A stretch of DNA of 64,000 nt from Helicobacter cetorum (GCA_022729705.1 DZAX01000011.1:1063-65062); one strand, 5' to 3'. Shown: positions 20,960 to 62,156, counted from the stretch's first letter. The notes: generated by a model from the sequence alone, not told the origin. Numbers and translations: made by a program.

Positions 20960-21097
20960 TTTGATTGATTCTCACATTTTAAGCAAAGCTCAAAATGAGG
21001 TCTTCAGCAGACGGCTCTCGCGGCTTGCCATGATTTTGATTGATTCTCACATTTTAAGCAAAGCTCAAAATGAGGTCTTCAGCAGACGGCTCTCGCG
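20960..21097. repeat. two perfect 63-bp direct repeats (20960..21022 and 21035..21097) separated by 12 bp
   Basis: The unit TTTGATTGATTCTCACATTTTAAGCAAAGCTCAAAATGAGGTCTTCAGCAGACGGCTCTCGCG occurs twice with no mismatch. Each unit holds an imperfect palindrome, CTCACATTTTAAGC/GCTCAAAATGAG. Confidence 0.9.
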
Positions 21098-21133
21098 ACT
21101 AGTCGCTCTTGGAATTAGTGGTTTCAATCTGTT

Positions 21134-23865: not shown

Positions 23866-24002
23866 GTTTACCAACCTTACGCACCAAAAACGCAAAGACC
23901 CCTCATTTCTCCCGCGAATGCGGGTAGCTTTAGGGGGTTGCAAGGGACATTCATGTCCCTGCCGCCAATACGGGCTTTGCTCGTATTGGTGCGTAAAATC
24001 AG
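23866..24002 (+). repeat. structured MITE-like repeat, copy 1 (full length)
   Basis: Outer arms TTACGCAC (23877..23884) and TGCGTAA (23890..23896). Hairpins CCCGC-gaat-GCGGG (23911..23924), AGGGACA-ttca-TGTCCCT (23943..23960) and CCAATACGGGC-ttt-GCTCGTATTGG (23965..23989). An 8-mer, TTAATTTA, occurs at 23858..23865 and 24003..24010. Confidence 0.85.
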
Positions 24003-26523: not shown

Positions 26524-26645
26524 CTCACCTTACGGTGCCGCCCCTAAACTCCCCCGCGAAAGCGGGTAACTTCAGGGGGATGCAAGGGACATTTATGTCC
26601 CTGCCACATATACGGGCTTCGCTCGTATATGTGCGTAACATCCAG
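26524..26645 (+). repeat. structured MITE-like repeat, copy 2
   Basis: CCCGCGAAAGCGGG, AGGGACATTTATGTCCCT, CACATATACGGGCTTCGCTCGTATATGTG, and a 3' end GTGCGTAACATCCAG. Same order as copy 1. Confidence 0.85.
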
Positions 26646-29251: not shown

Positions 29252-29350
29252 ACTAAACTCTCCCGCATATGCGGGTAGCTTTAGGGGATTGCAAAGGACA
29301 ATTTTGTCCTTGCCGCCAAGATGGGCTTTGCCCATCTTGGTGCGTACCAT
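29252..29350 (+). repeat. structured MITE-like repeat, copy 3 (5' truncated)
   Basis: CCCGCATATGCGGG, AAGGACAATTTTGTCCTT, CCAAGATGGGCTTTGCCCATCTTGG, GTGCGTA. It lacks the 5' outer arm. Confidence 0.8.
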
Positions 29351-42827: not shown

Positions 42828-42855
42828 AATTTTTGACACAACTCCTGATTATACA

Positions 42856-42985
42856 CTGATGTTACGCACAAACACGAGCAAAGCCCGTATTTGCGGCAGG
42901 GGCTATTCGCCCCTTGCATCCCCCTAAAGCTTCCCGCATTCGCAGGAGAATGGAGGTTGTAGGAGCTTTGCGTGCGTAAGGTCAG
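42856..42985 (-). mobile_element. structured MITE-like repeat, copy 5 (full length, inverted), with target-site duplication
   Basis: Ends are CTGATGTTACGCAC and GTGCGTAAGGTCAG (a 14-nt TIR, 12/14 matched). It is flanked by direct TTATACA at 42849..42855 and 42986..42992. Confidence 0.85.
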
Positions 42986-43156: not shown

Positions 43157-45178
43157 GTGGCGTTTGAAAAAATTAAATTTTTTACTACTGTCGCATGCCT
43201 ATCGACTATAAAGACGCTCGCAAGCGACGCCGTTGTAGTTGACTTAACAAACGATATACACAACTTTACCAACGCCGCCGTAAAAACAAAACAAAATATA
43301 GATTATCTACCATTCATAATGTCCGTCTCTGATGGCGACAATCTTTCAAAGCTTGGAGTTCTTACTCTAAAAGAAGCCTTAATGTTGTTTGTCGGCGTAG
43401 ACGTATCAACAGATAATATAAAAAGTCAATCACCTATTTTTCGCGGCTCAAACCCTTTTGCACATGGACAAAGTAAGCTTATTATAGACGGCGTTGTCGT
43501 CAACGATAGAGTCTCAGGCGGATATACGGCGTATTTGGATATGCCCATAGAGATGATAAAAAGAATAGAAGTTGTAAGAGGTCCGGGAAGTTTTGCCGAT
43601 GGTTCAAACGGATACGCAGGCACAATTAACGTAGCCACATACGCCAAAGACGGCTCAAAAGAAGGCGGCAAGGCTTACGTCCTGTACGGCTCATACAAAA
43701 ATAGAAGTGTGGGAGCCTTATACAACACAAAAATCGGCAATTTTTTGTTTCATATAGACGCCTATACGCATAAAGATAATATGAAAATTAGTACAAACGG
43801 AAAAGACGGTCTAAGCTATAGCAAACAAAATAGCTCCTTATCGCGCTCCGGAGAGGTTGACATAGGGCTGGAAACATCGGCTTTAAGCGTCGCTATAAAG
43901 TCTCAGGAGCTTTCGATAGTAGGTCGTTTTACCTCGTACCAACCCGGAAGCGCCTTTGGAATGCTAAACACTCTTCCAAACGAGGATGGAAGCCAAAAAA
44001 TGCCGTCTTGGTATCTTGAGGGGACATATAAAAAAGAGCTTACGGCGGATGTTTTTGTAGAAACTAAAATAGGATACATGGAGGACGGATGGGAGAGCTA
44101 TGCTCGATCTTATCCGGCGGGTATGAAGGCGGCGCACACTGTTTTTCAAGACGGTTATTGGGCGGATCTTTTATTGACAAATAGGGTTATATATGGCGGC
44201 GTCTCCATAAGATATGACGGCTTAAAAAACCATACCCCAAAAATAGGGGCGTATCAAGGTGATGAAAAAAATATTGATTTACGCTCTATAACTACAAACA
44301 GGATCACCGGCGCAGGATGGGTGGACTACACAAAAAGCGCGCCATTTTTTGACGGAGAAGCGGCAAAAAGAAAAACAACAAAACTATATCTAAGCGACTC
44401 TTGGGAAATCTCTGAGAGTTTAGCCTTGTCATTTGAGCTAGGAAGCGACAAGGCTAGCGATTTTGAAAGACAAAATGACTATCGCGCGGCGCTTGTGTGG
44501 CAGATAAGCGACTCCGATATTCTAAAAACCATGACGAGTACGGCATACCGCGCCCCATCATGGCAAGAGCTATACGGCATAAACAATACGGCGCGAATCG
44601 GAAGCAAAAACCTAAAACCAGAGAGAGTTCGCGCATATGAAGCTCAGTATATTAAAAAACTAAACCAAGACAACTCGCTTGCTATAAATCTATTTTTTCT
44701 ACAAAATAAAAATCAAATTAATAAAATTAACGCTCAAAACCAATATAGAAATGCCGGAGATTCCTTAATATATGGAGTTGAAACGGAGTATAAAAAAGAG
44801 TTTAGCACAGGAATCTTATGTGTGGGCTACTCGTTTTTAAAAGGCAAAACAAACAACGAAGACTCTTTGCCATCAGCCGCTAGACGTCTATTTAAAGGCT
44901 CGGTTTTAAAAAAAATATACCCTGGATTCTCTATCGCCGGAAATATCGTTTATGTGGGAGATAAAAAACGAGTCGCGTCGGACAATAGAGACGAAACACC
45001 ATCATATACGACAATCGACGCAATCGTAAACTATGACGCCAAAAAATGGGGAGCGCAGTTTGGCGTAAAAAACGCTACAAACACAAGAGCGTTATATCCC
45101 AGTGAACAAGGTTCTTACCCAGGTGATTATCCCACAAGCAAACAGACTCTGTTTGTAAAACTATTTGCTAGGTTTTAG
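43157..45178 (+). CDS. TonB-dependent outer-membrane receptor
   Basis: 673 aa. Plug-domain pattern (IEVVRGPGS), a long beta-barrel region and a C-terminal aromatic residue (LFARF). GTG start. Confidence 0.75.
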   Translation: MAFEKIKFFTTVACLSTIKTLASDAVVVDLTNDIHNFTNAAVKTKQNIDYLPFIMSVSDGDNLSKLGVLTLKEALMLFVGVDVSTDNIKSQSPIFRGSNPFAHGQSKLIIDGVVVNDRVSGGYTAYLDMPIEMIKRIEVVRGPGSFADGSNGYAGTINVATYAKDGSKEGGKAYVLYGSYKNRSVGALYNTKIGNFLFHIDAYTHKDNMKISTNGKDGLSYSKQNSSLSRSGEVDIGLETSALSVAIKSQELSIVGRFTSYQPGSAFGMLNTLPNEDGSQKMPSWYLEGTYKKELTADVFVETKIGYMEDGWESYARSYPAGMKAAHTVFQDGYWADLLLTNRVIYGGVSIRYDGLKNHTPKIGAYQGDEKNIDLRSITTNRITGAGWVDYTKSAPFFDGEAAKRKTTKLYLSDSWEISESLALSFELGSDKASDFERQNDYRAALVWQISDSDILKTMTSTAYRAPSWQELYGINNTARIGSKNLKPERVRAYEAQYIKKLNQDNSLAINLFFLQNKNQINKINAQNQYRNAGDSLIYGVETEYKKEFSTGILCVGYSFLKGKTNNEDSLPSAARRLFKGSVLKKIYPGFSIAGNIVYVGDKKRVASDNRDETPSYTTIDAIVNYDAKKWGAQFGVKNATNTRALYPSEQGSYPGDYPTSKQTLFVKLFARF

Positions 45179-45708: not shown

Positions 45709-47088
45709 ATGAGTAAAATAAACTTTTCTCTCTCAACTAAGATTTTAGCAAGCTTTATAGCGGCTATGTTGGCGGTATTTGCATACTTTGCATACTCCGT
45801 TGTAATAAGCGTAAAAGACGGTATGCTTATATCGGAAAAAGAAAAAGGAGCCTTGCTTCTTAGCTCGGTAGCTCCCGATATAGGTATGAGTCTCTATCTC
45901 GGGTTTGAAGCGCAAGGGGCGCAAAAAGCAAAAGAGCTTTTAGAGTATCAAGACGTTTTATCCATAGACGTAAAAACCGTAGACGGGCGCTCAATCGGAC
46001 ACTTCGAATCGCCAAGCACCGCAAGTGAGGATTTAAAAAGAGCGATAAGAATAAACAAAACAATCAAAGACAGTATAAGCGGCAAACAAATCGCCATCTT
46101 GGAGATGAACTACTCAAACAAAAACTACCAAAGATTGATTGATAATTTTAAAGAGCTTATTTTTAAGTTTGGAGCCATTTCGGCGCTTATTTTTATGTTT
46201 ACTCTTGTTTTTGTAAAATGGCTACTCTCTCCGCTCTCCACTATAGCCTCAAAGATGAGAGAGTATGTGCCGGGCAAAAACATAACTTTTGATAGAAATG
46301 AAAGCGACGACGAAATAGGCTCCATAATCACCTCTTTTAAAGCTATGCAGATCAATATAGACAGTTTTCTGGAGGAGATTAGAACAAAAGACGGCGAACT
46401 TATGCGTCAATCAAAACTAAAAGCGCTTATGGATATGATAAGCGCCGTGGCTCACCACTGGAGGCAACCTCTTAATGCGACAGGTATAATACTTCAAGAG
46501 TTTAGATATGCGCATAAATTTGGAGAGCTAAATGAGGCGTTTATTGAAAAAAATATAGAGATGGGGATGGGAATATTAAATGGTATGTCAAAAACCATTG
46601 ACGACTTTCGACTATTTTTTGCCTCAAATGAAAAAGAGGAGAGCGTAGACATCGGCAAAGCAAGCTCTGAAGCGATAGAGTCCTTAGCTAATCAGCCACT
46701 CTCCAAAGAGATAGCCATAAAAATACATGGAGATAATTTTTTTGTCACCGGACAAAAAGAGCTCCTAACAGACGTTATAGCGCAGGTAGTATCAAATGCA
46801 AAAGACGCTTTAAGCGAAAAAATAGCTAGCAACAAAGATTTTAAGGCTTTAATAACTATCTCGCTAAATTCCGATAAAAAAAGCTTTGAGTGCAGAGACA
46901 ACGGCGGAGGTATGAACGCCGAGGCTTTAGGAAGAGTTTTTGAGCCGTACTTTACCACAAAAGAGCAAGGCAAAGGCGTAGGTCTCGGTCTTTTTATGGC
47001 ACGCACAGTGATTGCAAATATGAACGGCAAACTCAGCGTATCAAATACGGACGACGGTTTTTCTGTGTTAATTGAGTTTGAGCACTAA
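45709..47088 (+). CDS. sensor histidine kinase
   Basis: 459 aa. Two TM segments, H box SAVAHHWRQPLN, N box SNAKDAL, G boxes RDNGGGM and GKGVGLGL. Confidence 0.85.
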   Translation: MSKINFSLSTKILASFIAAMLAVFAYFAYSVVISVKDGMLISEKEKGALLLSSVAPDIGMSLYLGFEAQGAQKAKELLEYQDVLSIDVKTVDGRSIGHFESPSTASEDLKRAIRINKTIKDSISGKQIAILEMNYSNKNYQRLIDNFKELIFKFGAISALIFMFTLVFVKWLLSPLSTIASKMREYVPGKNITFDRNESDDEIGSIITSFKAMQINIDSFLEEIRTKDGELMRQSKLKALMDMISAVAHHWRQPLNATGIILQEFRYAHKFGELNEAFIEKNIEMGMGILNGMSKTIDDFRLFFASNEKEESVDIGKASSEAIESLANQPLSKEIAIKIHGDNFFVTGQKELLTDVIAQVVSNAKDALSEKIASNKDFKALITISLNSDKKSFECRDNGGGMNAEALGRVFEPYFTTKEQGKGVGLGLFMARTVIANMNGKLSVSNTDDGFSVLIEFEH

Positions 47089-47115
47089 AAATCTCTTGTC
47101 GCTTTACATTTTTTT
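46874..47115 (+). repeat. left copy of a 242-bp perfect direct repeat (kinase 3' end plus 27 bp downstream)
   Basis: Identical base for base to 53243..53484. Confidence 0.95.
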
Positions 47116-47239
47116 AAAGGGTGACGAGGTTTAAAACTATTGATGTTTTGGAAAATAGAAACTGGTAAAATAGCGGCTGTTCCGATACCCAAACTACAAG
47201 CCCCGCAAACTCAGCGGGGCAAAACTCCATAAAACAAAC

Positions 47240-47268
47240 TTGACCTCATATATCCAATAAGATATAAT
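47240..47268 (+). promoter_or_regulatory. sigma70-type promoter of the TA pair (probably leaderless mRNA)
   Basis: TTGACC (47240..47245), 17-nt spacer, TATAAT (47263..47268). The ATG of the toxin gene begins 7 nt after the -10 box, and there is no RBS. Confidence 0.45.
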
Positions 47269-47274
47269 CTTGTT

Positions 47275-47619
47275 ATGAAACATTGGAATATCAACTACTT
47301 TTTTAATATCAACGGCAACTCACCAGTAAAAGAGTGGATTGATGAGTTGTCCGATGAATCGAAAGCGGAGATTTTCAAAGTTTTTGAGCTTTTAAAAAAG
47401 TACGGTATAGAGCTTGGATTGCCTTTTGTCAAGTGCCTTGAGAGCAAAATCTATGAAGTCAGAACAAAAGACAAATCCGGCATTTATCGGGTTTTGTATT
47501 TTGCTCATACGGATAGAACTTTTGTACTGCTTCACGGTTTTAAGAAGAAAACACAGGCTACGCCTAGAAAAGAGATTGATATAGCCATAAAAAGAATGAA
47601 AGAGGTACAAAATGGATGA
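47275..47619 (+). CDS. RelE/HigB-type (Gp49-like) toxin
   Basis: 114 aa. PVKEWIDEL..., KIYEVRTKDKSGIYRVLYF..., FVLLHGFKKKTQATPRKEIDIA is the Gp49/HigB-like toxin pattern. The toxin-first order and 8-nt overlap with the antitoxin gene fit HigBA. Confidence 0.75.
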   Translation: MKHWNINYFFNINGNSPVKEWIDELSDESKAEIFKVFELLKKYGIELGLPFVKCLESKIYEVRTKDKSGIYRVLYFAHTDRTFVLLHGFKKKTQATPRKEIDIAIKRMKEVQNG

Positions 47620-47884
47620 TTTTCAAAAACACCTGCAAGAGTCCTTGAAGGACGAAGCGTTTAGAGCCGAGTATGAAGCCAAAGAGCTAAGATATAAGGT
47701 AATAGACATTTTGGTGGGGCTAAGAATCCAATACAAACTAACGCAAGCCGAACTAGCAAAAAAACTAGGGACGACGCAAACGGTAGTGAGCCGAATAGAA
47801 AACGGTAGCGTTAATGTTGGAATCGACTTTTTGCAAAAATTGGGTACGGCTTTTGGTAAGAAGGTAGAGATAAAGGTAGGCTAA
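47612..47884 (+). CDS. XRE-family HTH antitoxin
   Basis: 90 aa. HTH LTQAELAKKLGTTQTVVSRIENG. Confidence 0.75.
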   Translation: MDDFQKHLQESLKDEAFRAEYEAKELRYKVIDILVGLRIQYKLTQAELAKKLGTTQTVVSRIENGSVNVGIDFLQKLGTAFGKKVEIKVG

Positions 47885-48109
47885 TCGGCTGCCATGTAGT
47901 ATAAAAAGTGAAGATTGAATACCTAACCCCGAAATTTATATACCACTTGAGGTTTTGGTGGGCGATAAGCAGGGGTTGGAATTTGCCAAGTGAGTATGTG
48001 CAAAAAATAGCCTGTCCCCGTTTCCTAAACAACTACACAAAAAATAAGATAGAAAACTATGAGGGGTATTATAGTTTTTGAGTTCAGAGGAGTTTGATTC
48101 TAAACGATT

Positions 48110-48372
48110 GTGGATGATGGTCAAAAAACGATACGAGAGATTGAATCAGAAGATGGATGTTTGATATTTGATGACACGGTTCAAGAAAAAGCATGGACGG
48201 ATGAGAGTGAAATGATGTGCTATCATTTTGATCATACCAAAGGGCGGAGTGTCAAGGGGTTAAATATTTTAAATGCCCTCTATCATAGTAATGATACCGC
48301 CATGCGTAGCCTATGAAATTGTTCGTAAGCCCATTCATTTTTGTGACCTAGAAACCAAACAAACTCCCGCTT
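48110..48372 (+). pseudogene. internal fragment of a DDE (IS4/IS701-like) transposase, frameshifted and truncated
   Basis: The 68-aa piece ...LIFDDTVQEKAWTDESEMMCYHFDHTKGRSVKGLNILNALYHS carries the DDE first-Asp region. It continues in another frame (IPPCVAYEIVRKPIHFCDLETKQ) and runs into the res 3' end. A stop lies immediately upstream at 48101. Confidence 0.6.
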
Positions 48373-51251
48373 AAAGAACTCTCGTTTATCTTAGCACTCC
48401 TTGCAATATCCTCCATATCCGCACCGCTTTTTTGAAGGCTGTAAAACTGTGTTTCTCCCAAAAGTAAGTAGCTCCAAGTTTTGGACTCTCTTGAATCTTC
48501 ATCAAGTGCATTTATGCGACGGATAAAATCTAAAGTTGCCCGTTGTTTTTGCTTGACATTGACATCTTTTAAATCTTTGTCCGATTTTGTCTCCACCAAA
48601 TAGATATTTGTTGCAGTTTCAATCATAAAATCAGGATAGTAACTAGCCATCAATCCATCATCTCTAAAATAGCTAATCGTTGCAAAATCGTGTTTGAACT
48701 CTAAAATTTTGATAAATTTCAGCACCTTGCTATCTTTGTCTAAAAACTCTAAAAATGCTTTTTCAAATCCCCCTTTATTGGATGGATATGATGTTTTTTC
48801 GTAGATTGTTTTTTGTAAATCTAGCGAAAAATTTGCCCTCATATTCAAACTACTAATCTTTGAAAAATAGATTTTATTTACAAGAGGTTTTATATAAGTT
48901 GTACTATTTTGCATATTGTAAATAAGTCTATGTATCTCATTGGTAATATGTGTTGTGATATTTGCATTTTTGAGCATCAAAACTCGCCAACTCTCATCTA
49001 CAAAAGGATTGAACTCTTGTCCAAAAAGTTTTGTTCTTATATATTTATCCAAAACTCCTAAAAGTTGGGGTTGATATATTTGCATTGATGGCAAGGCTCG
49101 ATTATGTCCTCGCACTTTTAATTGCCCCATTTTATGCGTTAAAATTTCTAAAATCTTTTGCAGATACTCGTTGTAGCTATTAGCTGTAAACAGATCCGCA
49201 CTTATCATATAATCGCCAAAAGTTGTTTTAACCGTTAGCTCTTCAGAGTGAAAAACCTCGCCTTTTGTAGTCCATGATTTAAGCTGTTCCAAACTATGGC
49301 ACAAGTATGGCGGAAGTGCATTTACATCAAACTCAGGTGCGTTTAACTCCTCCTCTTCATCTTTGACTATCTCCAAAAATGCCATGTCATAATCTTCATA
49401 GTTCTCTTTGAGCCCCACTTTTATCATGTCGCCCGTAGAAGTTCCCTCTTTTAACTCATTTTCATCAAAACCAAACTCATCCTCAGAGAGTAAATCCCTG
49501 TAAAACTGGCTAAAAGCAGGATGTTCGATGATGCTCAAAACATCCAAATAAGAGCTAGGACTTAGTTTGTCTTTTAAAACTCTTTGTCTATTTTCTCGTT
49601 TTTCATCTTCAAATTCAGCTCCTCGATACATAAGTCGAAGCCCTCGACCGATAGTTTGCTCCAATAAAATCGAAGATTGATTTGACCTAAGTGGCACAAT
49701 CACACAAACATTTGATACATCAAATCCCTCTTTGAGCATCAAAACAGAAATTACAACTTTTGGATTTTCATAAATATCAAGATTAAAAAGTTTTTGTTTT
49801 AAACTAGCCCATTCCTCTTTTGGTATTTCTCCATTTTTTTTAGAATGAACTCCCATAAACTCATCATTTTTAAAACCTATCTCAATCAAAAAATCTTCTA
49901 CAAATCTTACAACTTCCGTATCTTCACACATGATAAGCATTTTTGGATGTTTTGGATTATCAAGTTTTGAAAAATCTTTTTCTAAAATATTTAGTTTCGT
50001 AAGTCCAGCTTGTATCATTATTCTTTGACCATCACTTAGACCTATCACTTTATTTGAGCCTTCATCTCTTAGGGCTTTAAAGTCTAACTCCAAAGTAGAT
50101 AACTCTTTTCTTTTATCAATAGTTATTATTTTTACCAAACCATCTTTTATGGCACTATTCAAATCAAAATCTACGACGACATGAGGGAAATAGTGTTTAG
50201 CTCTTTTTTCTCCGCTTCCCGTCGTGTCGTAAGGGGTTGCTGAAAAATCTATTTGAATAAACTTACTTCCTTTATTTTTGGCTATAAAATTTAAAGATTT
50301 TTGCCACTCAACCTCTTGAATTTCTCCTGCAGATTTATTTTCGTGGATATGATGGGCTTCATCATTCATAACTACCAAATCATCAAGCCCAGCTAAAAAC
50401 TCTATTTCTCCACCACTAAAATAAGCATTATCAAGAGATTCCAAACTATTTCCTGCCGAAGTTCCAGGTCGTGCTGGAAAAATATCTGCAATCACACCAC
50501 TTGGGTCATCAAGTGGGCTTATCTCCTCAGCTTCTTCTTTCCCCATAAACAAATGCCAATTTGAAATAACCAACATCCCATCACTTGTAATTTTTTTGCC
50601 TATTTCATCTTTCGTTACAACACTTGAAGATAAAAAAGCTTTGATTGTCATCTCATATTTCCCGGATACAAAAAGCTCTTTGTTTTTAAATATATCACTT
50701 GTGTTTACATCACGGCTTCCATCAACTCTTTGTTTGCCCATATAGCTATCAAGCAATCTTTCATATACGATAAGCCCAGGAGCTATAAGCAAAAAGTTTT
50801 TTGAGTATCTTCCACGTTTTTCTTTTTCGCTTCTTGCATTGAGGTATTGCCAAATAAAAAGTGCGTTCATAACCCAAGTTTTTCCGGTACCTGTTGCCAT
50901 TTTCATACCGTATTTTGGGATATTGTATTTCTCTTTTGTTAGAAGTTCGGAGTTTAGTTTTAGTATAAGTTCTTTGTCGCACTTTTCATAAATCTCTAAA
51001 ACTGAACTTACTTTTAATATCTCATGTAGATAAATAGTATTTAAAATAGCTTGTTTTTGCCCTCTATGAAAATTTATCTCTCTCTGGCTTATATGCGGTT
51101 CACAAAACCAAAACTTGATTAAATCCGCCGTTGTAGGGGTCGCAAGAGTTAAAAACTCTCCACTTTCCCAAAGTTCATTTACTATTTTTGAGATACTTTG
51201 AGCTAGCTTTAGAGGAGTTTCACCTGTTAGAGTATTTATAGAAGTTGCCAT
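48348..51251 (-). CDS. res: type III restriction enzyme Res subunit
   Basis: 967 aa. SF2 helicase motifs (MATGTGKT, MNDEAHHI, SATP, TIGRGLR) and a C-terminal PD-(D/E)xK-like YYPDFMIE...YLVETK. Confidence 0.9.
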   Translation of the reverse strand: MATSINTLTGETPLKLAQSISKIVNELWESGEFLTLATPTTADLIKFWFCEPHISQREINFHRGQKQAILNTIYLHEILKVSSVLEIYEKCDKELILKLNSELLTKEKYNIPKYGMKMATGTGKTWVMNALFIWQYLNARSEKEKRGRYSKNFLLIAPGLIVYERLLDSYMGKQRVDGSRDVNTSDIFKNKELFVSGKYEMTIKAFLSSSVVTKDEIGKKITSDGMLVISNWHLFMGKEEAEEISPLDDPSGVIADIFPARPGTSAGNSLESLDNAYFSGGEIEFLAGLDDLVVMNDEAHHIHENKSAGEIQEVEWQKSLNFIAKNKGSKFIQIDFSATPYDTTGSGEKRAKHYFPHVVVDFDLNSAIKDGLVKIITIDKRKELSTLELDFKALRDEGSNKVIGLSDGQRIMIQAGLTKLNILEKDFSKLDNPKHPKMLIMCEDTEVVRFVEDFLIEIGFKNDEFMGVHSKKNGEIPKEEWASLKQKLFNLDIYENPKVVISVLMLKEGFDVSNVCVIVPLRSNQSSILLEQTIGRGLRLMYRGAEFEDEKRENRQRVLKDKLSPSSYLDVLSIIEHPAFSQFYRDLLSEDEFGFDENELKEGTSTGDMIKVGLKENYEDYDMAFLEIVKDEEEELNAPEFDVNALPPYLCHSLEQLKSWTTKGEVFHSEELTVKTTFGDYMISADLFTANSYNEYLQKILEILTHKMGQLKVRGHNRALPSMQIYQPQLLGVLDKYIRTKLFGQEFNPFVDESWRVLMLKNANITTHITNEIHRLIYNMQNSTTYIKPLVNKIYFSKISSLNMRANFSLDLQKTIYEKTSYPSNKGGFEKAFLEFLDKDSKVLKFIKILEFKHDFATISYFRDDGLMASYYPDFMIETATNIYLVETKSDKDLKDVNVKQKQRATLDFIRRINALDEDSRESKTWSYLLLGETQFYSLQKSGADMEDIARSAKINESSLSGSLFGF

Positions 51252-51252
51252 T

Positions 51253-53208
51253 TTACACCTCCTCTTTTACCATAGATTCAAAACCAAAAACATCAACTGC
51301 TTTGACACAAACGACTCTTTTATCTTTTCGCGCAACCATGATTTTTGCACTATAAATCACATGAAGAGGGTCACCGTCATTTGCCGTGTTTTCTCTGTAA
51401 TCTTGCCATTTGCTTCTAAAGGTCACGCCGTCATAATCAGGGTCGATACTCCAATACTCAATAAGTGCCAACGGGTCAGTTGCCATAAGTTTTTGAAGTG
51501 CTTTTTTATCGTCATCATCAAGGGGAATATTATCAGGGCTTAAAAGTATGTAATTATCAAGGCTTATTTGTAACTCTTCAAGTTCGCTGTCATAGACTTT
51601 TTTCTCTATTGGTTTGATAACTAGATATTGCAACGAGCTAAATCTGATTTTGCCACTATCAACTAGTTTTTTATAAGTAGCTTTTGATTTGAGTTTATCA
51701 AGTAAATCAGGTGGAATAACCAAAACTTCAAGCTTTGAATCATTTAGTTCATTGATAGCACTACTTATATCGTATGCAAAATTCCACCCTAAAACTACAA
51801 CTTTTTCCCAACCACCTAAGAAGTTATCCCTTAACTCAATAGCTTTTTTCAAAGTAGCAAATCCAGTCATCTTGCTGGGACTATCTACAAAAACCAAAGT
51901 TTTTTTATCTTTGATATATCCCAAATTTTGCGGATGTTCATCTCCAAATCCTAAAGCCCCGCTTCCGCTCTCATCGCTAAAAAGTGAAATCACAACTTGA
52001 GATAAATCTCCGATTCGTTTATAAAGTTTGCTACTTTCAAATGCCTCTTTTTGATAATCGCCGATAGATTGATATAAAAACGGTTTCACTTCATTGTCAA
52101 TCAGCCTTTTTCTTTGTACCATAATAGAGGGTTTGCCAATGTCGGAGCTTATCCATCTGCGACCAAGCTTTTCAGCAACGGCGGCAGTTGTACCGCTTCC
52201 ACCGAAAAAATCGGCAATAATTGAGTTTTCATTTGATGAGGCTTTTATTATTCGTTCTACTAATTTTGATGGTTTTTGTGTTATGTATCCAACAAGTTCA
52301 TTTCTCCATGATGATACATTTGAAATATCTGTCCAAAAATCTTCTGGAATCTTCCCTTTTTCATGTCTTTCTAGTTGTTCCTCTTCATTATAATCCTTTT
52401 TTCCATGTACTCCTCTAGCATTTGTAAAGTCAGCTTTGTAAGCAATACGGATATCATCTGCATTAAAAACAAAATTGTTTGTTTTTGCATATCTGAATAT
52501 AACATCATGTTTTTTTGGAAAATCCTTATTTGCAGGACTTGGACCAGTATAACACCAAACAATCTCATTCCTAAAATTCTCTTTTCCAAAAATATCATCA
52601 AGCAAAATTTTCACATAATGCCCCACATGCCAATCAATATGCACATATATTGAGCCTTTTTCACTTAAAAGTTCTCTCATCAAAGCAAGTCGTGGATATA
52701 TCATTTTAAGATAACTAACCGTTCCATCTTTCCAAGTATCAGCATAAGCAAACTGTTCTATTACCGTTGGTTTTTGATTTAGATTTACATTTGGTAGAGT
52801 GATTTTTGTCCGATAATCAGCCTTTGAGTCAAACGGTGGGTCGATATAGATTAAGTCGATTTTCCCTCTCATACTTTCAAGTCCACTTGCACTATCACCG
52901 GCAAGAAGTCCTTGTATCACCAAGATATTATCCCCATAAATCAGCCTATTTTTCCAAGCATTTTCATCCTCAATAGTTGGTAACTCTCCACGAAAAAGTC
53001 CGCTTATATCTTTGCTAGGCAAAACTAGCTCATTGGTTTGTAAAGCCAAAGCATTTCCGCTATTGATTCGCTCAAGTATTCGAGCCGCTTCAGCACGCCC
53101 CTCTTTTACTATTTTTGGTAACTCTTCTATTAGTGATAAAGGCATAATTTCCCTCTTTTTACTTTTAAATAACTCAACTTTCGCACATAACCCCAGCTCC
53201 AAATTCAT
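51253..53208 (-). CDS. mod: type III DNA methyltransferase Mod subunit (N6-adenine)
   Basis: 651 aa. Motif [11 protein letters not shown] and SAM-binding [12 protein letters not shown]. Lies 1 nt upstream of res. Confidence 0.9.
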
Positions 53209-53242
53209 TCAAACAATCTAGCTAACAATCTATAAAAGCCTC

Positions 53243-53457
53243 ATAAAAAAAGCTTTGAGTGCAGAGACAACGGCGGAGGTATGAACGCCGAGGCTTTAGG
53301 AAGAGTTTTTGAGCCGTACTTTACCACAAAAGAGCAAGGCAAAGGCGTAGGTCTCGGTCTTTTTATGGCACGCACAGTGATTGCAAATATGAACGGCAAA
53401 CTCAGCGTATCAAATACGGACGACGGTTTTTCTGTGTTAATTGAGTTTGAGCACTAA
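53243..53457 (+). pseudogene. orphan 3' fragment (last ~70 codons) of the histidine kinase gene
   Basis: Same sequence as 46874..47088 including the stop, but with no upstream reading frame. Confidence 0.85.
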
Positions 53458-53484
53458 AAATCTCTTGTCGCTTTACATTTTTTT
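53243..53484 (+). repeat. right copy of the 242-bp perfect direct repeat
   Basis: Identical to 46874..47115. It is followed by one extra T in the T run. Confidence 0.95.
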
Positions 53485-53806
53485 TATTTACTCATCTTTC
53501 GCACCTAATTTTAAGCGGTATGCCTTATGAAATCGCAGTTAAGTAGGGCATTATAGAAATATATTCAACACTACTTGACACTGATACTAACTTTTTTAAA
53601 ACCCCTATTTAAAGGCTTTAAAAAGAGAGAAAAAATCTATCAATAGATTTTGTGCTACTCTTTTAAAAGGAATGGTACAACGTGGTAAAACTTGGCGCTT
53701 AAACAAAAACCTCCTCTCCCATATAACCTTAAAACCGCTATAATTACCCAAAAACTACGGCTATGCAATCAAACGCCACAAGCAAACAATAGGGAAAAAC
53801 CAAAAC

Positions 53807-54937
53807 ATGAGCAATAGAATCTTTCTCTCCCCTCCGCACATGGGCGGCAATGAAACCAAATACATACAAGAGGCGTTTGACGCAAACTATATCTCTTCTG
53901 TGGGCGAGCAGCTATCTAGGTTTGAGGGGTCGATTTGCGCTTTTACGGGTGCAAAGTATGCGGTGGCTCTTACTAGCGGCACGGCGGCTATTCATTTGGC
54001 TTTGCGCGCCGTTGGGGTGAAGGACGGGGATGAGGTGTTTAGCTCCTCTTTTACTTTTATTGGTGGGGTGGCTCCTATTTTGTATGAGCGTTGTACGCCG
54101 TTTTTTATCGACTCGGATGAGGATAGTTGGAATCTTGACCCATTACTGCTCCTTGAAGAGTTGGAGAGTCGTAAAAAAAGCGGGGCGAAAATGCCAAAAG
54201 CGCTTATTTTGGCTCACCTCTACGGACAAGCGGCGAGAATAGAGGAGATACAGGAGATAACGCACAAATACGGCATATACACAATTGAAGATGCGGCGGA
54301 ATCGCTTGGTGCGACGGTTGGGGGTAAGCAGACGGGGACGTTTGGCAAGGTCGGCATATACTCTTTTAACGGTAATAAGATTATCACGACTAGCGGCGGC
54401 GGTATGCTTGTCACGGATAGCGAGAGGGTGGCTTCTCAGGCTAGATTTTTGTCTACACAGGCAAAAGAGCCGTTTTTGCACTACGAACATAATACATTTG
54501 GCTACAACTACCGTATGAGCAATGTGGTGGCGGCTATTGGGCGCGGGCAGATGGAAGTTTTGCCGCATCGCATAGAGAGAAGACGGGAGATTTTTGCGCT
54601 TTACAAAGAGATGTTAAAAGATGTGCCGGAGATAAAATTTATGCCTGAAGTCGCAAAAAGTAAAGGTAATAGATGGCTAACGACTTTTTATTTGGATGAA
54701 AAGCTAAAAACAATGCCGCGCGACATAATAAAAGCTCTTGAAGAGAGAAACATAGAGTCTCGACCACTATGGAAGCCGATGCACGCCCAACCTGTTTTCA
54801 AAGACGCGCCACGCCGCGTCAACGGCTTTTCGGATATGCTTTTTGAGAGAGGATTATGCTTGCCATCGGGCTCTTCAATGAGTGATGAAGACGTGGCTTT
54901 GGTTGCAAAAATTGTGCTTGGTGTAATCAAAAAATGA
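53807..54937 (+). CDS. pglE: DegT/DnrJ/EryC1-family sugar aminotransferase, PglE-like
   Basis: 376 aa. FLSPPHMGGNETKYI, NGNKIITTSGGGMLV, HYEHNTFGYNYRMSNV, RPLWKPMHAQPVFK and CLPSGSSMSDEDV closely follow the Campylobacter PglE sequence as I recall it. Confidence 0.6.
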   Translation: MSNRIFLSPPHMGGNETKYIQEAFDANYISSVGEQLSRFEGSICAFTGAKYAVALTSGTAAIHLALRAVGVKDGDEVFSSSFTFIGGVAPILYERCTPFFIDSDEDSWNLDPLLLLEELESRKKSGAKMPKALILAHLYGQAARIEEIQEITHKYGIYTIEDAAESLGATVGGKQTGTFGKVGIYSFNGNKIITTSGGGMLVTDSERVASQARFLSTQAKEPFLHYEHNTFGYNYRMSNVVAAIGRGQMEVLPHRIERRREIFALYKEMLKDVPEIKFMPEVAKSKGNRWLTTFYLDEKLKTMPRDIIKALEERNIESRPLWKPMHAQPVFKDAPRRVNGFSDMLFERGLCLPSGSSMSDEDVALVAKIVLGVIKK

Positions 54938-54975
54938 GCAAACAATAAAAGTTTTGTTAATCAGAGGTGGTTTCG

Positions 54976-57389: not shown

Positions 57390-57791
57390 TTAATCCATAT
57401 TTACAACGCTAAATTGAAGTATTTTGGGATTATCATCTTCAAGACAGTAGCCCGTACCGCTTTTTGTCTCCTCCATCAGTTGCATAATGCATGTTAAGGT
57501 TCTGTTTTCTTTTGATACTAGGTACCCTTTTGCATTGCCGCTTATATGCCTAATCATCGGATGAAGCTCAAATCTTTGATTTACGTCAAAAACAAGATTG
57601 CCGTAATAAGAGGCACCCTTAAGATACAAAGACAAAGAGCCGTTTTTGTTTTGTATAGCGTTCATATCAGGCTTTTGTGCTTGAGAGTCTACGCTTGAAT
57701 GTGTTTGATATTTTGAAGCGCATCCTGAAAATAGTGCCAAACAAACAAGAAGCAATGCCGTATTTTTAACTATCATTTTATTTTTCCTCAA
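57390..57791 (-). CDS. lipoprotein, function unknown (gene 5 of the exported-protein operon)
   Basis: 133 aa. Signal peptide with lipobox LFSGC. Overlaps the upstream gene by 14 nt. Confidence 0.7.
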   Translation of the reverse strand: MRKNKMIVKNTALLLVCLALFSGCASKYQTHSSVDSQAQKPDMNAIQNKNGSLSLYLKGASYYGNLVFDVNQRFELHPMIRHISGNAKGYLVSKENRTLTCIMQLMEETKSGTGYCLEDDNPKILQFSVVNMD

Positions 57792-58005
57792 ATAATTTTT
57801 TCATCTCTTGGTCTTGCTTTTCAAAAAATTTATCCAACTTTTTATCTAGCTCTTCATACTCTTTGTTTGCAATCTGAGGCTCTTTTTTTTGGTCTGCGCT
57901 TTTATCAATGTTTAATTTGATTAGGTATCCCGTAGCCCCTAGATTTAGCAAACATAAAAAAGTAATAACTATCATAAAAGTCGATGTTTGTTTTTGTGCG
58001 TCCAT
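57778..58005 (-). CDS. small single-TM coiled-coil protein (gene 4)
   Basis: 75 aa. TM FMIVITFLCLLNLGATGYLI, then a charged helical tail. Confidence 0.55.
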   Translation of the reverse strand: MDAQKQTSTFMIVITFLCLLNLGATGYLIKLNIDKSADQKKEPQIANKEYEELDKKLDKFFEKQDQEMKKLFEEK

Positions 58006-58022
58006 TGTTTACCTTTCTGACT

Positions 58023-60053
58023 TTATGGAATATCAATAGCCGATACGGCTGATTCAAAGCTCATAATTACGTCTTTAAGGAGCTGTACCCTCAAAAATTC
58101 TCTTTCTTGACCAATCGGCATATCAAATGTTGGATTTGTTTCAAAAGATTTTTTTGATTTAAACACAGCGTCCTTTAGAGATTTATTCTTTATCTCTTGC
58201 GCCTCGTATACTCTAAAGCCCCCGGTAATATCGCAACTTAGCGCTTCAAAACCTTTTGTTTGCGACGGTTTTTTTGATTTAACCTCCAGCCAATGTACGG
58301 GCTGTAGACAATATTTCGTAGAAGGAGTCGTGACAATCGGCGTTTTGTCAAATTTTGTATCGTCGATATTTCTTTTTAGAGCCGCCGATAGACCATTGGC
58401 GTCATAAAGCGGGTATTTGAAAGACTTTTTAATCAAATATCTTGCAGTCTCGTCAAACCCGTTGATATTTATAGCATCCATTTTTGATGGTTTATCGCAT
58501 AATGAAAATAGTTTTGCATCAGATGGGGCGCTTGAGGCGATTACATCCTCGGCGACAATATCACCTCTTTCGACGCTTAGTTTTTGAGAGATTTTTAGAG
58601 AGTCTAACGTAGCTTTTACCATAGTATCTGATTTTTCGTTTATTACGGCTTCTTGGAGCGGAATAAGAATATTTTTTTTATCTCCAACTGAACCTATGTT
58701 TTTGTATATGGTTATAGTAGCTCCTGGCGCCAATAGGTTTTTATCGTCTTCAAACTCTATTTTTAATCCGTTTACGCTCTTAATTTTGTAAGCGACCTTA
58801 TCAAATGAAACTCCTTTTGAAAAAGACTCCGCCAATTTTAGCGTCGCATTTTTCATGACAGTTTCAAATCTAGCACTTTTTGACTGACCTTTACCGTGCG
58901 CTACAACGTCTACAATCTCCTCAAAAGCGCAATCGCTATGAAACACCCTGCCGCTAGCGTCGACAAGCTCCCCGCAAGCTCCGACATAATATGTTTTTTG
59001 CTTTGTATAATCGACATTTGTCGGGGCCGTATACCCAAAAGGACCGTCAAAGTAGAGTCTCAAAAAATAATCAGGCACAGATCGTTTCCCCTCCAAAACC
59101 CTAACTCCTGATTTTGAGATAATATCTCGCTTTGCGGCATAAAAATCTTTGCCGATTGATACCAGCGCAAAAGCACCGCTCTGAGCTATTTTGTCGGAGA
59201 ATATCTCATATAGCATTTGTTCAGGCGGCGTTTCCTGAATTTTTTTATCTATGTCAATATCAAGTAGTGTTACGCGAGGTTTTTTGATGCCGTCTAGCGT
59301 TCCGTTGTAAGTTTTTATGAGAGTATCGCCCTCTTTGGTTAGGTATTGTGGAAACTCATCTTGACCTATGGAGTAGCCGTTTGTCGAGTACAACACCTCC
59401 ACACTGCCGTTTTCTCTAGCTAGCGTATCGCCCTTAGCTATTCCGCCATCAAGTCCTTTGTCTAGTATGAGCAACCCGCCCTCAAGTCCGATGACTTTTG
59501 CAGATAGTTTTTGCGGCTTGAAGTTTTGGCTCGCCTCTTTTGCTAAATGCTCAAAAAGTCTTTGATAGCTTGCCGTATACCAATCCGCTAATTTTTTTGT
59601 TTTTTCGGCGCCGATAGCCGATAAATCGCCTTGCGTAATGTCTGTATACGAATGAGAGTACAAAATATCCCCATTTGCCATATTTAAAAAGTTTAAACTA
59701 GCGGTTACCGGAAGTGTGTAACTTTTTATAGACGAACCGCTCATTTGCTCTTCATAAACCGATGCTCTAGAAATTTTTAGATAGGCGGCAAATGTATTTT
59801 TTATATTTTTCTTGTCAATTTCGTTTTTTGCGTCAGGATAGTATTTTTTTAACGCTGCGTTGAAGGTGTTTAAGATATTTTGACTGTTTGCCCCTTTTGA
59901 CGCTACAAATATAGGGTTTTTCTCTGTGCTTTCTTCGGCTATGAGCATTTTTGGAACCCAAATAGAAAAAGAGTCGTTTCCAAACGCCGCCGAAGAGAAA
60001 AGTAAACTGGCAAGGGCGATGTAAAGTGCCCTATTTGTTCTACGCAAAATCAA
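58023..60053 (-). CDS. large secreted protein, function unknown (gene 3)
   Basis: 676 aa. Signal peptide ALYIALASLLFSSAAFG. I recognise no catalytic motif. 4-nt overlap with gene 2. Confidence 0.7.
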   Translation of the reverse strand: MILRRTNRALYIALASLLFSSAAFGNDSFSIWVPKMLIAEESTEKNPIFVASKGANSQNILNTFNAALKKYYPDAKNEIDKKNIKNTFAAYLKISRASVYEEQMSGSSIKSYTLPVTASLNFLNMANGDILYSHSYTDITQGDLSAIGAEKTKKLADWYTASYQRLFEHLAKEASQNFKPQKLSAKVIGLEGGLLILDKGLDGGIAKGDTLARENGSVEVLYSTNGYSIGQDEFPQYLTKEGDTLIKTYNGTLDGIKKPRVTLLDIDIDKKIQETPPEQMLYEIFSDKIAQSGAFALVSIGKDFYAAKRDIISKSGVRVLEGKRSVPDYFLRLYFDGPFGYTAPTNVDYTKQKTYYVGACGELVDASGRVFHSDCAFEEIVDVVAHGKGQSKSARFETVMKNATLKLAESFSKGVSFDKVAYKIKSVNGLKIEFEDDKNLLAPGATITIYKNIGSVGDKKNILIPLQEAVINEKSDTMVKATLDSLKISQKLSVERGDIVAEDVIASSAPSDAKLFSLCDKPSKMDAININGFDETARYLIKKSFKYPLYDANGLSAALKRNIDDTKFDKTPIVTTPSTKYCLQPVHWLEVKSKKPSQTKGFEALSCDITGGFRVYEAQEIKNKSLKDAVFKSKKSFETNPTFDMPIGQEREFLRVQLLKDVIMSFESAVSAIDIP

Positions 60054-61474
60054 TCAAACATCTCCTGTTTTGACTCCAAATCTTTATCTCTAGCATTTTT
60101 CTGAATTAAAGAGCCGATTTTGGCTCCTAATTCGGTAGCCGCTTGGACTCTTACGTTATTCATGCATCCCTCGACGCCTGCATCGCTAACTTTTAGAGTT
60201 TTCAGTGTTCCGCCCGGAAGTTCGATATTGCTCTTTAAAGGCGCTATACTTATCGTGCCGGTGTTCAATCCGCATCTAAAGTCACCGACATTGTCTTTTT
60301 CAGGGTTGTAGCCTATCTCTAAAGTTCCTATTCCGATATAGCTAGCTTCTGGTCTTTTGAGCCTCATGAATTTTTTGAAGTTATCGCCGTTGCTTCTCAG
60401 AGCCTCTGCGTATGAACTGTACCTCTTTTTTGTAGTTTTTTCAAAATCTGCGAGTAGTCCGGAGCCGTCTTCAAATTGAACGCCAAAACGACCAAGTGTT
60501 GCTTTAAGCTCGTTTTTCATAGCGTCGTTAAGGGTACTTTGAGGTTTTAATGCGGCTATATTCACGGTTCTTGCATAGTGAAACTCCTCTTTGTCTGTCA
60601 CATTGTTTTTGACATTTTTGGAAGAAGAGGAGTTTTTGTTGGATGAGCTTGATGCTGAGGCTTGATAGTTTTTACTTTGAGCCATTTTTGCTTCACTACT
60701 ATTTGCGTAGCTTGCCGACTGCCTTGCAGAGCCTCTCTGGCTTGCCGCAACCGCCGCATCGTCTCTTCCGTATACCGAAACGCCGTTTTCTGATATTGCC
60801 GCCCGTGACGACGCGCTACCCACATATTTAGCGTCGTATGACGCCGCCGCGTTAGCCTTGCCGGACGCCGAGTTTTTTGCGCTAAAAGAAGCGGACGCTT
60901 TATCGCTTACTCTCATATTGGATGTGCTTGCCGAGGCTGAATTTCTTGAAGAGTTTTCTTTGTAGTTACTACTATTATCTCGTTTGTAGTCTATTCTCTC
61001 ATCCATCGGTACTTGTGAAGCACTAGCTTGGTCTATTTTGACAGCTTCGTCTATAAAGACAATGACGCTTCCCAAGTTTTTTGTTTTATTTGACAATGCG
61101 CCAAGTCTCACATCTCTTAATGCATCAACAAAAGCGGCATCGTCAATTTCCAAAGTAACTTTGACCGCATACGTCGCCGAATCAGACCTATCTCTCTCTA
61201 TCTTAGGCGAACTTTTTAAAAAAGTGTCTTGTTGTTGTGTTAGCTGTAAAATTCCAGGATGATCGGCGGGAACCTTCAAACTTCCTAGTGTCTTTTTTAC
61301 GGCTTGTAAGACCGCATCCGCTAGAGCTTTTTTCTCGGCGATATTTTTTACGCTTTGAGGGTCGCTAGAGGCTATCGGGACGGAGCCTATACCTACTGCG
61401 GTAAATGCGAAAGCGTTTTGTGAACAAATTAGCGTCGCATATATTGCGGCAATGCTTAGCAAGCTTTTTTTCAT
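60050..61474 (-). CDS. secreted protein with an LPP20/FlgT-N-like N-terminal region and a Ser/Ala/Asn-rich disordered centre (gene 2)
   Basis: 474 aa. Signal peptide ending NAFA. The N-terminal AVGIGSVPIASSDPQSVKNIAEKKALADAVLQAV resembles LPP20/FlgT_N-type domains. About 130 aa are low complexity (SASASTSN...SASSSSNKNSSSSKN). Confidence 0.65.
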   Translation of the reverse strand: MKKSLLSIAAIYATLICSQNAFAFTAVGIGSVPIASSDPQSVKNIAEKKALADAVLQAVKKTLGSLKVPADHPGILQLTQQQDTFLKSSPKIERDRSDSATYAVKVTLEIDDAAFVDALRDVRLGALSNKTKNLGSVIVFIDEAVKIDQASASQVPMDERIDYKRDNSSNYKENSSRNSASASTSNMRVSDKASASFSAKNSASGKANAAASYDAKYVGSASSRAAISENGVSVYGRDDAAVAASQRGSARQSASYANSSEAKMAQSKNYQASASSSSNKNSSSSKNVKNNVTDKEEFHYARTVNIAALKPQSTLNDAMKNELKATLGRFGVQFEDGSGLLADFEKTTKKRYSSYAEALRSNGDNFKKFMRLKRPEASYIGIGTLEIGYNPEKDNVGDFRCGLNTGTISIAPLKSNIELPGGTLKTLKVSDAGVEGCMNNVRVQAATELGAKIGSLIQKNARDKDLESKQEMFD

Positions 61475-61479
61475 CTTTA

Positions 61480-62156
61480 TTATTTACCACTTTCTTTCGG
61501 GGCTTGCTTGCTATCTGTTGGTGCGACAAACTTTATTCCGTTTGCACTCGCAAGCCCATAAAGTTTGTCGCCTATGTTTGCTATGGTGATTATGTTATCG
61601 GGAAGAGTGACTACCATATCTTTGAGTTGACCCAATTGAGAAGAGTATTTTGTCGCCGCCATGGGATTTGCAGAGAGAGAAGCCATCATGCTTTTTGCAC
61701 TCGACAAGGTATCTTTGTATTTTAAACCCGAGAGCATAAAGTTAAATCCTCCGCTTAATAGAAGATTTGTTGTTTTTTGATTAGCCTTTGCAAACTTATC
61801 TTTGGTTTCTTGCGATTCTAAAGCGGCGCTTATCGCCGTTTCCTTATCACTTTGCACTTTATTTATCGCCGCTTCTTTTTCCTGTGGGTCGGATATTGTC
61901 TTTGCCGCCTTTAGAGCCGATTCAAATTTAGCGGCTTCTTCTTTTGACAATAAGGCTTTGGCTAGAGTGTCTGATGATTTTTGGAGTAGCGTTTTTGCGA
62001 TTACGTAGTTTTTGATTGTGGCGTCTAAAGCGTTTACACTAACCTCTTGTGTACCCCCCCCGTTGCAGTTGTCGCAGCCGAAGTTATAGAATCAAACATT
62101 CCCGCATTAGCTCCGCTAATCGCCAAGAAGCTTACCAAAACAATTTTTTTAAACAT
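61480..62156 (-). pseudogene. phase-variable (currently frameshifted) secreted helical protein (gene 1)
   Basis: ATG at comp(62154..62156) with an AAGGGGA RBS encodes MFKKIVLVSFLAISGANA..., a signal peptide. The G8 tract (C8 on +, 62054..62061) shifts the frame to a TAA at comp(62034..62036). One extra G fuses it in frame to ORF 61480..61950. Confidence 0.75.

Follow-up and report, generated by a model that had tools for sequence, protein, structure and literature searches.

We analysed a stretch of 64,000 nucleotides (nt) deposited under Helicobacter cetorum (GCA_022729705.1 DZAX01000011.1:1063-65062), called the window below. It contains an islet that lies between two 242-bp direct repeats of the 3' end of a sensor histidine kinase gene and carries a toxin-antitoxin (TA) pair, a transposase remnant and a type III restriction-modification (R-M) system, whose adjacent mod and res genes are referred to as the cassette. 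The features of the locus, in coordinates of the window, are:

45709..47088, + strand: intact sensor histidine kinase gene, 459 amino acids (aa); open reading frame (ORF) with Pfam HATPase_c (E 2.8e-15) and a weak HAMP match
46874..47115, + strand: left 242-bp copy, made of the kinase 3' end, the stop codon and 27 nt downstream; 100% identical to 53243-53484 and also present in the second assembly described below (contig L004)
47116..47274, + strand: spacer between the kinase and toxin genes, with a GC-rich hairpin at 47200-47220 and, for the TA operon, a strong promoter-like sequence TTGACC-17-TATAAT at 47240-47268
47275..47619, + strand: HigB-like toxin (Gp49/DUF891, RelE/ParE superfamily); Pfam PF05973 (E 7e-29), NCBIfam TIGR02683 below cutoff
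47612..47884, + strand: XRE-type helix-turn-helix (HTH) antitoxin; Pfam HTH_3 (E 5.8e-13), 8-nt overlap with the toxin gene
48110..48347, + strand: internal fragment of an IS701-family transposase (NCBIfam NF049921), with an apparent frameshift at ~48300 and its right side cut off where the R-M cassette ends
48348..51251, - strand: res, type III restriction subunit, 967 aa, with a superfamily 2 (SF2) helicase region and a C-terminal nuclease-like domain (ResIII; REase_III)
51253..53145, - strand: mod, type III methyltransferase of the N6-adenine/N4-cytosine class, 630 aa; the ORF is open back to 53208
53146..53242, - strand: region upstream of mod, in which cassette homology stops between 53157 and 53171
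53243..53484, + strand: right 242-bp copy, an orphan kinase 3' fragment that holds a 58-aa ORF (53281-53457)
53485..53806, + strand: right flank; 53485-53704 is unique and AT-rich, and homology to a DegT locus of a sister species runs from 53705 on

An earlier note on this DNA had described the two repeats as identical base for base, each covering the last 215 nt of the kinase gene with its stop codon and 27 nt downstream. Our analysis confirms this description: a repeat finder matched 46874-47115 with 53243-53484 at 242 of 242 positions (a two-copy family), and the kinase ORF at 45709-47088 places 215 nt of the left copy inside the gene and 27 nt behind its stop. Exactly two copies are present, and a scan of the window with 14-nt seeds detected no other such direct repeat of at least 40 nt. 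The repeats are separated by 6,127 bp (47116-53242). The left copy terminates in consecutive T residues. Before the right copy, the sequence 34 nt past the mod start given by the ORF is unrelated; after it come one extra T and, again, unrelated sequence. Judged from the reading frame, the duplication of the gene 3' end leaves the kinase intact. In orthologues with 93% and 78% aa identity, upstream synteny is kept (TonB-dependent receptor gene, then a 175-aa ORF).

The interior of the islet had been judged by eye to be more AT-rich than its flanks, and measurement bears this out. Its GC content of 0.355 is the minimum over all 6.1-kb segments of the window; non-overlapping segments of this size have a mean of 0.410 +/- 0.013 and a lowest value of 0.391. 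The toxin gene comes first and is overlapped by the HTH antitoxin gene, an organization of HigBA type, and the 90%-identity cluster of the toxin has 24 members located on many contigs. Downstream of the TA pair, 48110-48316 matches the IS701 model NF049921 (E 1.7e-16) at model positions 54-106 of 318. A continuation in another frame, VAYEIVRKPIHFCDLETK, extends up to the Res stop; it was read by eye in three-frame translation and has no model match. The whole fragment amounts to roughly 80 codons and reads toward the cassette. Since it is apparently cut off at the Res stop, the cassette is likely to have been joined to the interior of a pre-existing insertion sequence (IS) copy. Pfam and NCBIfam matches thus substantiate the toxin, the XRE antitoxin and the frameshifted transposase fragment reported previously, the continuation beyond the frameshift being recognised by eye.

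The absence of an integrase, likewise reported previously, agrees with our scan, in which none of the six principal ORFs between the repeats matched an integrase or recombinase family (short overlapping ORFs were left out of the scan). The 64-kb window contains no tRNA or tmRNA genes, and an Rfam scan of it returned nothing.

The stop codon of mod adjoins the start codon of res, which follows immediately downstream. Mod matches Pfam N6_N4_Mtase (E 1.1e-44), PADLOC MTase_III PDLC03633 (E 7.4e-84, positions 71-610 of 616) and EcoP15I Mod (PDB 4zcf_A, E 7e-16). Res matches Pfam ResIII (E 1.6e-12) and PADLOC REase_III (E 1.8e-27), with Helicase_C, RE_endonuc and TnsA-like_N below their cutoffs, so that its nuclease domain is weakly supported by sub-cutoff matches. 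Its best NCBIfam match, the BPTD_3080 family, is below cutoff as well; its homologues bear the source name "type III restriction enzyme", and no match was obtained against PDB sequences. The assignment to type III is based on the near full-length Mod profile match and on a Res protein, encoded after mod, with an SF2 helicase region and an endonuclease region (the latter weak). The locus resembles EcoP15I-type systems in that mod lies upstream of and adjacent to res, the Mod of ~630 aa is of the beta class with a variable centre, and the Res of ~970 aa, known here from its sequence, combines a helicase region with a nuclease-like domain. It differs in that its Res is too distant from solved structures for a sequence match. 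In the cell, the R-M pair would act as a defence and methylation system, and, like the TA pair, it may disfavour loss of the islet.

Previously given coordinates of the two genes hold for res (48348-51251), but the start of mod, placed at 53208, is probably 53145 (MPLSLIEEL...), since homologues and the gene call in the second assembly begin there. The 90%-identity cluster of Mod has 2 members only. The central part of mod (52303-52555), presumed to be the target-recognition region, is unrelated to the corresponding part in two relatives (L014/L015), and the remaining gene aligns; this divergence points to recognition-domain swapping within the cassette family. No simple-sequence repeats hinting at phase variation were found in mod.

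The same islet, with the same two perfect 242-bp repeats, is present in a second assembly. Exact look-up of the kinase protein retrieved contig L004 (44,991 bp) of GCA_022730395.1, which is 99.85% identical to 35709-57086 (21.4 kb) of the window. Of the 33 positions at which the two sequences disagree (29 mismatches, 4 gap positions), not one falls inside either repeat copy. Differences are clustered: the left flank has 0.6 per kb, against 2.6-2.8 per kb for the islet and the right flank, as expected of short recombination imports or of mixed-strain consensus sequences. Each source is apparently a metagenome assembly, the window being part of a contig of 66,445 bp. When the 58-aa orphan product was looked up exactly, only two contigs were returned, one of which is shown and the other reported with mostly the same neighbours; both contigs encoding this kinase fragment read as occupied sites, and the look-up revealed no further occupants.

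Close homologues of Res are numerous (84-91% aa identity), and its 90%-identity cluster includes the Aliarcobacter cryaerophilus protein WP_260924958.1. Contigs of six Res homologues were compared with the window. They represent five other chromosomal contexts (L numbers denote contigs):

L014/L015: small ORFs on the left, NiFe-hydrogenase genes on the right
L016/L017: rplM-rpsI on the left, ahpC on the right
L018-L021: MmeI-type R-M gene on the left, peptidase M1 gene on the right
L022: transposase gene on the left, purH on the right
L023/L024: efflux/MarR genes on the left, exonuclease-family gene on the right

GC content of these host flanks ranges from 26% to 41%. In BLASTN comparisons of the window with at least five other contexts, the mod-res cassette is 77-83% identical at the nt level. 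Homology is limited by 53157-53171 (~12-26 nt upstream of the mod start) at one end and by 48353-48378 at the other, where the Res stop is located (48353-48356 in all but one). These alignments suggest that the cassette is clearly mobile, occurring in at least six contexts including the window, and that it is the mobile core of the islet. Neither terminal inverted repeats nor short target duplications were seen at the cassette ends, and the islet ends have no terminal inverted repeats. A plasmid vehicle was not identified: 46000-54500 gave no megablast match among plasmids, and tblastn of Res against plasmids retrieved only ~45% identical relatives in other phyla.

Among relatives, the shared unit is bigger. 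It adds a small divergent gene upstream of mod, and its borders are the stop codon of this gene and the Res stop. The small gene belongs to a conserved ~62-aa family in five of the six related loci and encodes an XRE-type HTH protein in the sixth. It is absent from the window copy; in place of the small HTH gene and the intergenic region, 71 nt of unique sequence (53172-53242) link the cassette end to the right repeat. The system had been called complete, which stands for the intact, adjacent mod-res pair but not for the unit, as the small divergent HTH gene of all six related loci is missing. The ~62-aa HTH-like protein (MTQRDMAGYL...NWRRDKPHLYEIVMKGF...QQNADELKALEE) is encoded divergently from mod in L014, L015, L018, L022 and L023 (e.g. 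L014 1106-1294, - strand) and may be a controller.

One of these relatives is itself flanked by a long repeat. In GCA_053526915.1 (L016) and SRR14517977 (L017), the cassette, consisting of an XRE-type HTH gene, mod and res, is bounded by an 81-nt direct repeat with 86% identity (with one indel permitted, ~120 nt). On its left, the copy comprises the last 68 nt of rpsI and the rpsI terminator hairpin; on its right, the copy begins at the Res stop codon. This cassette and the islet share a Res that is 86% identical, a repeat of an upstream gene 3' end and the lack of an integrase. They differ in that the rpsI repeat is shorter (81 to ~120 nt) and imperfect (86%), bounds the cassette alone, abuts the Res stop and goes with an XRE-type regulator.

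The islet had been treated as a single element in the earlier note. This is contradicted by two contigs of ~940 nt from sulfidic-cave metagenomes (L106/L107, Joint Genome Institute 3300000232 and 3300000233), found by exact look-up of the toxin, in which the same kinase-spacer-toxin haplotype precedes other DNA, and by the IS701 scrap, which is cut by the cassette. In both contigs, 166 nt of the kinase 3' end (100% identical) are followed, across the same junction, by the spacer (159/159) and the toxin gene. The contigs then show 15 differences from the window in 47779-47884 and no homology beyond 47886; the L107 tail, compared with 47887-48110, gave low-complexity matches only. Their divergence indicates a recombination breakpoint inside the antitoxin gene, unless the short contigs are chimeric. 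The islet thus reads as a mosaic and not as one element.

Mosaic organization seems to extend to the flanks. The gene at 53705-54940, coding for a DegT/LegC-family aminotransferase, has a GC content of 0.47, high for the window, and is 94.7% identical at the nt level to a sister-species contig (L025). The match is restricted to the gene and the 100 nt upstream of it. In L025, modBC and a capD-like gene flank this gene, whereas in the window it is a solitary gene with the islet on one side and a chemoreceptor gene on the other. It appears to be a gene-sized transplanted patch. DNA behind the kinase gene also varies in the sister species (kinase 93% aa identity), being either a convergent pair of a 7TMR-DISM kinase and a regulator, or an IS3-like remnant followed by a pdxA-like gene, and the 78%-identical kinase relative has aldolase genes downstream. 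Such variation behind orthologous kinase genes suggests that the kinase 3' end is a recurrent recombination boundary followed by a patchwork of gene-sized pieces. The IS3-like remnant (L006 5710-6024, - strand) lies directly after the orthologous kinase gene and is a decayed transposase, its HTH part fused to a ...YNFRRFHSALNYEKP end; it is another sign that the post-kinase site collects mobile DNA.

R-M system insertion accompanied by a long target duplication was described by Furuta, Abe and Kobayashi (2010, Nucleic Acids Research 38:2428; PMC2853133), whose ref. 37 for this phenomenon is Nobusato et al. 2000. It is documented for R-M types I-IV, mostly in naturally competent bacteria. Repeats of ~100-420 bp flank the Helicobacter pylori examples, and the type III examples of Campylobacter jejuni have 110-208-bp repeats in which 195/208 and 106/110 positions agree. 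The repeats frequently extend across a start or stop codon and thereby spare the target gene. It was also proposed that repeat-flanked R-M units amplify and are released after insertion, in a cycle, and that the long duplications stem from something that R-M systems have in common, such as double-strand breakage. The class was defined there by R and M homologues inside an insert of less than 20 kb, a repeat of more than 30 bp that is not multi-copy, a related empty site and no other mobility genes (PMC2853133).

Here, res and mod lie within 6,127 bp, the repeat is 242 bp at 100% identity and occurs in two copies within the 64-kb window, and the truncated IS701 fragment is the only other trace of mobility. 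Further likeness concerns the long repeats without an integrase, the spanned stop codon, the low-GC insert and the host, an epsilon-proteobacterium (Campylobacterota). Unlike in the published class, which requires an empty-site genome, none was found for this locus; the insert is a mosaic with a TA pair and IS701 scrap, and its repeats are perfectly identical. Moreover, one repeat is near the 5'-truncated cassette and the other is 1.2 kb away from the cassette. From its sequence features, the locus is best filed in this already described class, as a new example of it. Particular to it are the perfect repeats, the mosaic content and the truncation of the cassette beside the novel junction. The analogy to attL/attR drawn in the earlier note gives way to this class, since the pattern fits published integrase-free long target duplication (PMC2853133). 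A transposon or composite transposon was also considered and rejected, given the lack of terminal inverted repeats, the truncated IS701 fragment as the only candidate and the 242-bp length of the duplication.

We favour, with a probability of roughly 0.6, the reading that a mosaic integrase-free islet of this class was formed by homologous plus illegitimate recombination and that the 242-bp repeat is the footprint of the joining. The locus may be written as A-D-B-D-C, with A for the 5' part of the kinase gene, D for the 242 bp, B for the islet and C for the DegT side. Incoming DNA from another strain of the same population, plausibly acquired by natural transformation, would have carried the allele kinase-TA-IS701 remnant-res-mod. 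On its left side it would have undergone homologous recombination within the kinase/TA region. On its right side it would have been broken ~100 nt upstream of mod, with loss of the small HTH gene of the cassette, and an illegitimate join at 46873/46874 would have linked the broken end to the kinase gene already present in the recipient. This join would lie 242 bp before the point at which alleles A-D-B and A-D-C diverge. A single novel junction (53242|53243) would be needed; the kinase would remain intact and perfect direct repeats would result, their right edge being the place where the alleles differ, 27 nt after the stop codon.

This route is suggested by the position of the truncated cassette 5' end near 53242|53243, by the presence of the A-D-B left junction in the other haplotypes of L106/L107, and by the first ~10 nt past the left repeat (AAAGGGTGAC), which weakly resemble the sister-species post-kinase sequence AAAGGTGGC, whereas the sequence past the right repeat does not. 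We also looked for a kinase-derived extension in the 8 nt left of the right repeat; 6/8 positions agree with the sister allele, and this candidate was dismissed as too weak, since 0.5% of the 8-mers of the window do equally well. Subsequently, RecA-type recombination between the repeats could delete, amplify or circularise the repeat-flanked unit, which could also enter an empty allele again through one crossover or be transferred by ordinary two-sided homologous recombination. We infer this whole route, in every step, from the arrangement of the sequences.

Homology-facilitated illegitimate recombination in natural transformation is described in Acinetobacter, Streptococcus pneumoniae and Pseudomonas stutzeri. 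The favoured route is similar in combining a one-sided homology anchor with an illegitimate other end, which would explain the single novel junction and the truncated cassette end. It differs in that the classical process usually deletes, and does not duplicate, recipient DNA, and in that no donor, recipient or microhomology is demonstrable at this locus. As for the alternatives raised in the earlier note, movement by recombination and not by a site-specific recombinase is the most sensible reading. Its picture of a foreign mobile block is retained insofar as the islet is AT-rich, integrase-free, horizontally acquired and associated with a duplicated gene 3' end, and is given up insofar as it implied an att-like single element. 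Nothing shows that the element carried a replacement copy of the gene end, both copies being identical.

Several points weigh against the favoured reading. The haplotypes that share the left junction are metagenome contigs of ~940 nt and could be chimeras joined in a widespread TA module, and the hint of native continuation past the left repeat rests on ~10 nt. The event's polarity is inferred, as is the identity of the new junction among the three, and natural competence of this uncultured Campylobacterales lineage is an assumption. The route does not explain the 71 nt that separate the cassette end from the right repeat. Long flanking repeats above chance were absent from four of the five other contexts of the cassette (L014/L015, L018, L022, L023/L024). 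Comparison with related strains for an empty site, proposed in the earlier note, did not yield one: the exact pattern of the empty junction (kinase to 53485 onward) gave 0 hits in the metagenomes of the Joint Genome Institute (JGI), a scan of the genome collection for the kinase retrieved only 22-26% identical kinases from other phyla and no close relative, and the sister species has other genes downstream of the kinase and no empty allele that we could find. The predicted allele is therefore hypothetical, in a species whose sampling is very thin. Relatives of DegT did not provide a route to the right flank either, as the closest one (L025) shares the gene only, in another context. No circular junction and no donor were observed.

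Other origins account for part of the evidence. A non-replicating circle with the islet and one 242-bp copy might have been integrated by one homologous crossover of Campbell type at an empty kinase 3' end; excision between the repeats in another cell could supply such a circle, for uptake by transformation. The perfect identity of the two repeats, their length well above the minimum for RecA-type recombination, the lack of recombinase genes among the principal ORFs and the insertion-amplification-release cycle proposed by Furuta et al. (PMC2853133) are all in keeping with it. This scheme accounts for spread and not for how the duplication first arose, neither a circular junction nor an empty site was observed, and native-like sequence seems, weakly, to follow the left and not the right repeat. 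As the origin of the islet it is rather unlikely, and it is likely as a means of later spread beside the favoured route. A break-driven insertion as envisaged by Kobayashi, in which nicks 242 bp apart or a resected break, possibly made by the restriction enzyme, receive a linear R-M fragment by ligation and are filled in, would agree with the sharp cassette borders, the second long-repeat insertion in the same R-M family at rpsI and the published hypothesis of a common R-M property such as double-strand breakage (PMC2853133). We consider it improbable here: the repeats bound a mosaic of TA pair, IS remnant and R-M genes and not the cassette alone, the left repeat being 1.2 kb from the cassette; the left junction is found in contigs with other content after the TA pair; and the mechanism has no experimental precedent. 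Equally doubtful is a broader proposal, in which the small HTH gene, mod and res form an autonomous, recombinase-free mobile unit, and Res or the breaks it provokes drive insertion at gene 3' ends with long target duplications. It stems from two independent repeat-flanked insertions in one cassette family, behind the kinase gene here and behind rpsI in L016.

That the islet is the remnant of an integrase-type island, whose target was the kinase 3' end (attL/attR) and whose integrase was later lost, is extremely unlikely. Direct repeats over a gene 3' end, AT-rich accessory DNA and mobile-element scrap would fit such an island. The scrap is an IS701 DDE transposase and neither a tyrosine nor a serine recombinase, no principal ORF matches an integrase or excisionase family, the related rpsI cassette likewise has a long repeat without an integrase, the cassette occurs at many unrelated sites, and 242 identical bp far exceed typical att cores. 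We rejected this candidate on the lack of a recombinase match in the six principal ORFs together with that of tRNA and tmRNA genes in the window. Finally, the arrangement might be an assembly artefact, with a chromosome that has an empty site and a separate circle or alternative-allele molecule that shares the 242 bp and was threaded in by the assembler. Both sources are apparently metagenome-assembled contigs, an exact 242-bp repeat is longer than usual k-mer sizes, and L107 begins exactly 41 nt before the right end of the repeat, as expected at a branch point of the graph. Against this, the two assemblies show the identical path, with 29 mismatches and 4 gap positions between them over 21 kb, a circle of 6.4 kb that lacks replication genes is implausible as a stable replicon, and analogous repeat-flanked R-M insertions are well documented in finished genomes (PMC2853133). 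An artefact is hence very unlikely; as both assemblies agree, mis-threading of the repeat is a small remaining risk.

How R-M systems spread without mobility genes is mechanistically still unsolved. The locus offers a clean example from an uncultured Campylobacterales lineage, with perfect 242-bp repeats around a type III system, and the same cassette is found with sharp, gene-end borders in six genomic contexts, including a second family member with a duplicated gene 3' end. Identical repeats predict that the defence and methylation genotype is unstable in the population, with loss, amplification and circle formation, and they are a hazard for short-read metagenome assembly. Current understanding is unchanged by the finding. 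Should the cassette prove autonomous, its relatives with at least 90% identity in cultivable Aliarcobacter would make the hypothesis of a "virus-like life cycle of R-M systems" experimentally tractable.

Further features were observed elsewhere in the window. Between the chemoreceptor gene and a cmoB-like methyltransferase gene, 57390-61950 (- strand) contains four co-directional ORFs of 133, 676, 474 and 156 aa. The last three have no Pfam match, the 133-aa ORF has a sub-threshold match only, and none of the four was matched by PADLOC; this may be another accessory block of unknown function. Repeats of 88 nt at 23908-23995, 26550-26637 and 29259-29346 are 85-86% identical, are spaced by ~2.6-2.7 kb and contain three internal palindromes. 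An inverted copy of this family at ~42855-42956 is intergenic, just after an SCO1-like gene and upstream of the TonB-dependent receptor gene at 43157-45178. Similar sequence occurs in contig L028 and at the start of L006, with no Rfam match. By its structure, the family looks like an intergenic element of the repetitive extragenic palindromic (REP) or miniature inverted-repeat transposable element (MITE) kind. A tandem duplication is found at 20960-21025 and 21035-21100, with a 66-nt unit, a 75-nt period and 98% identity.

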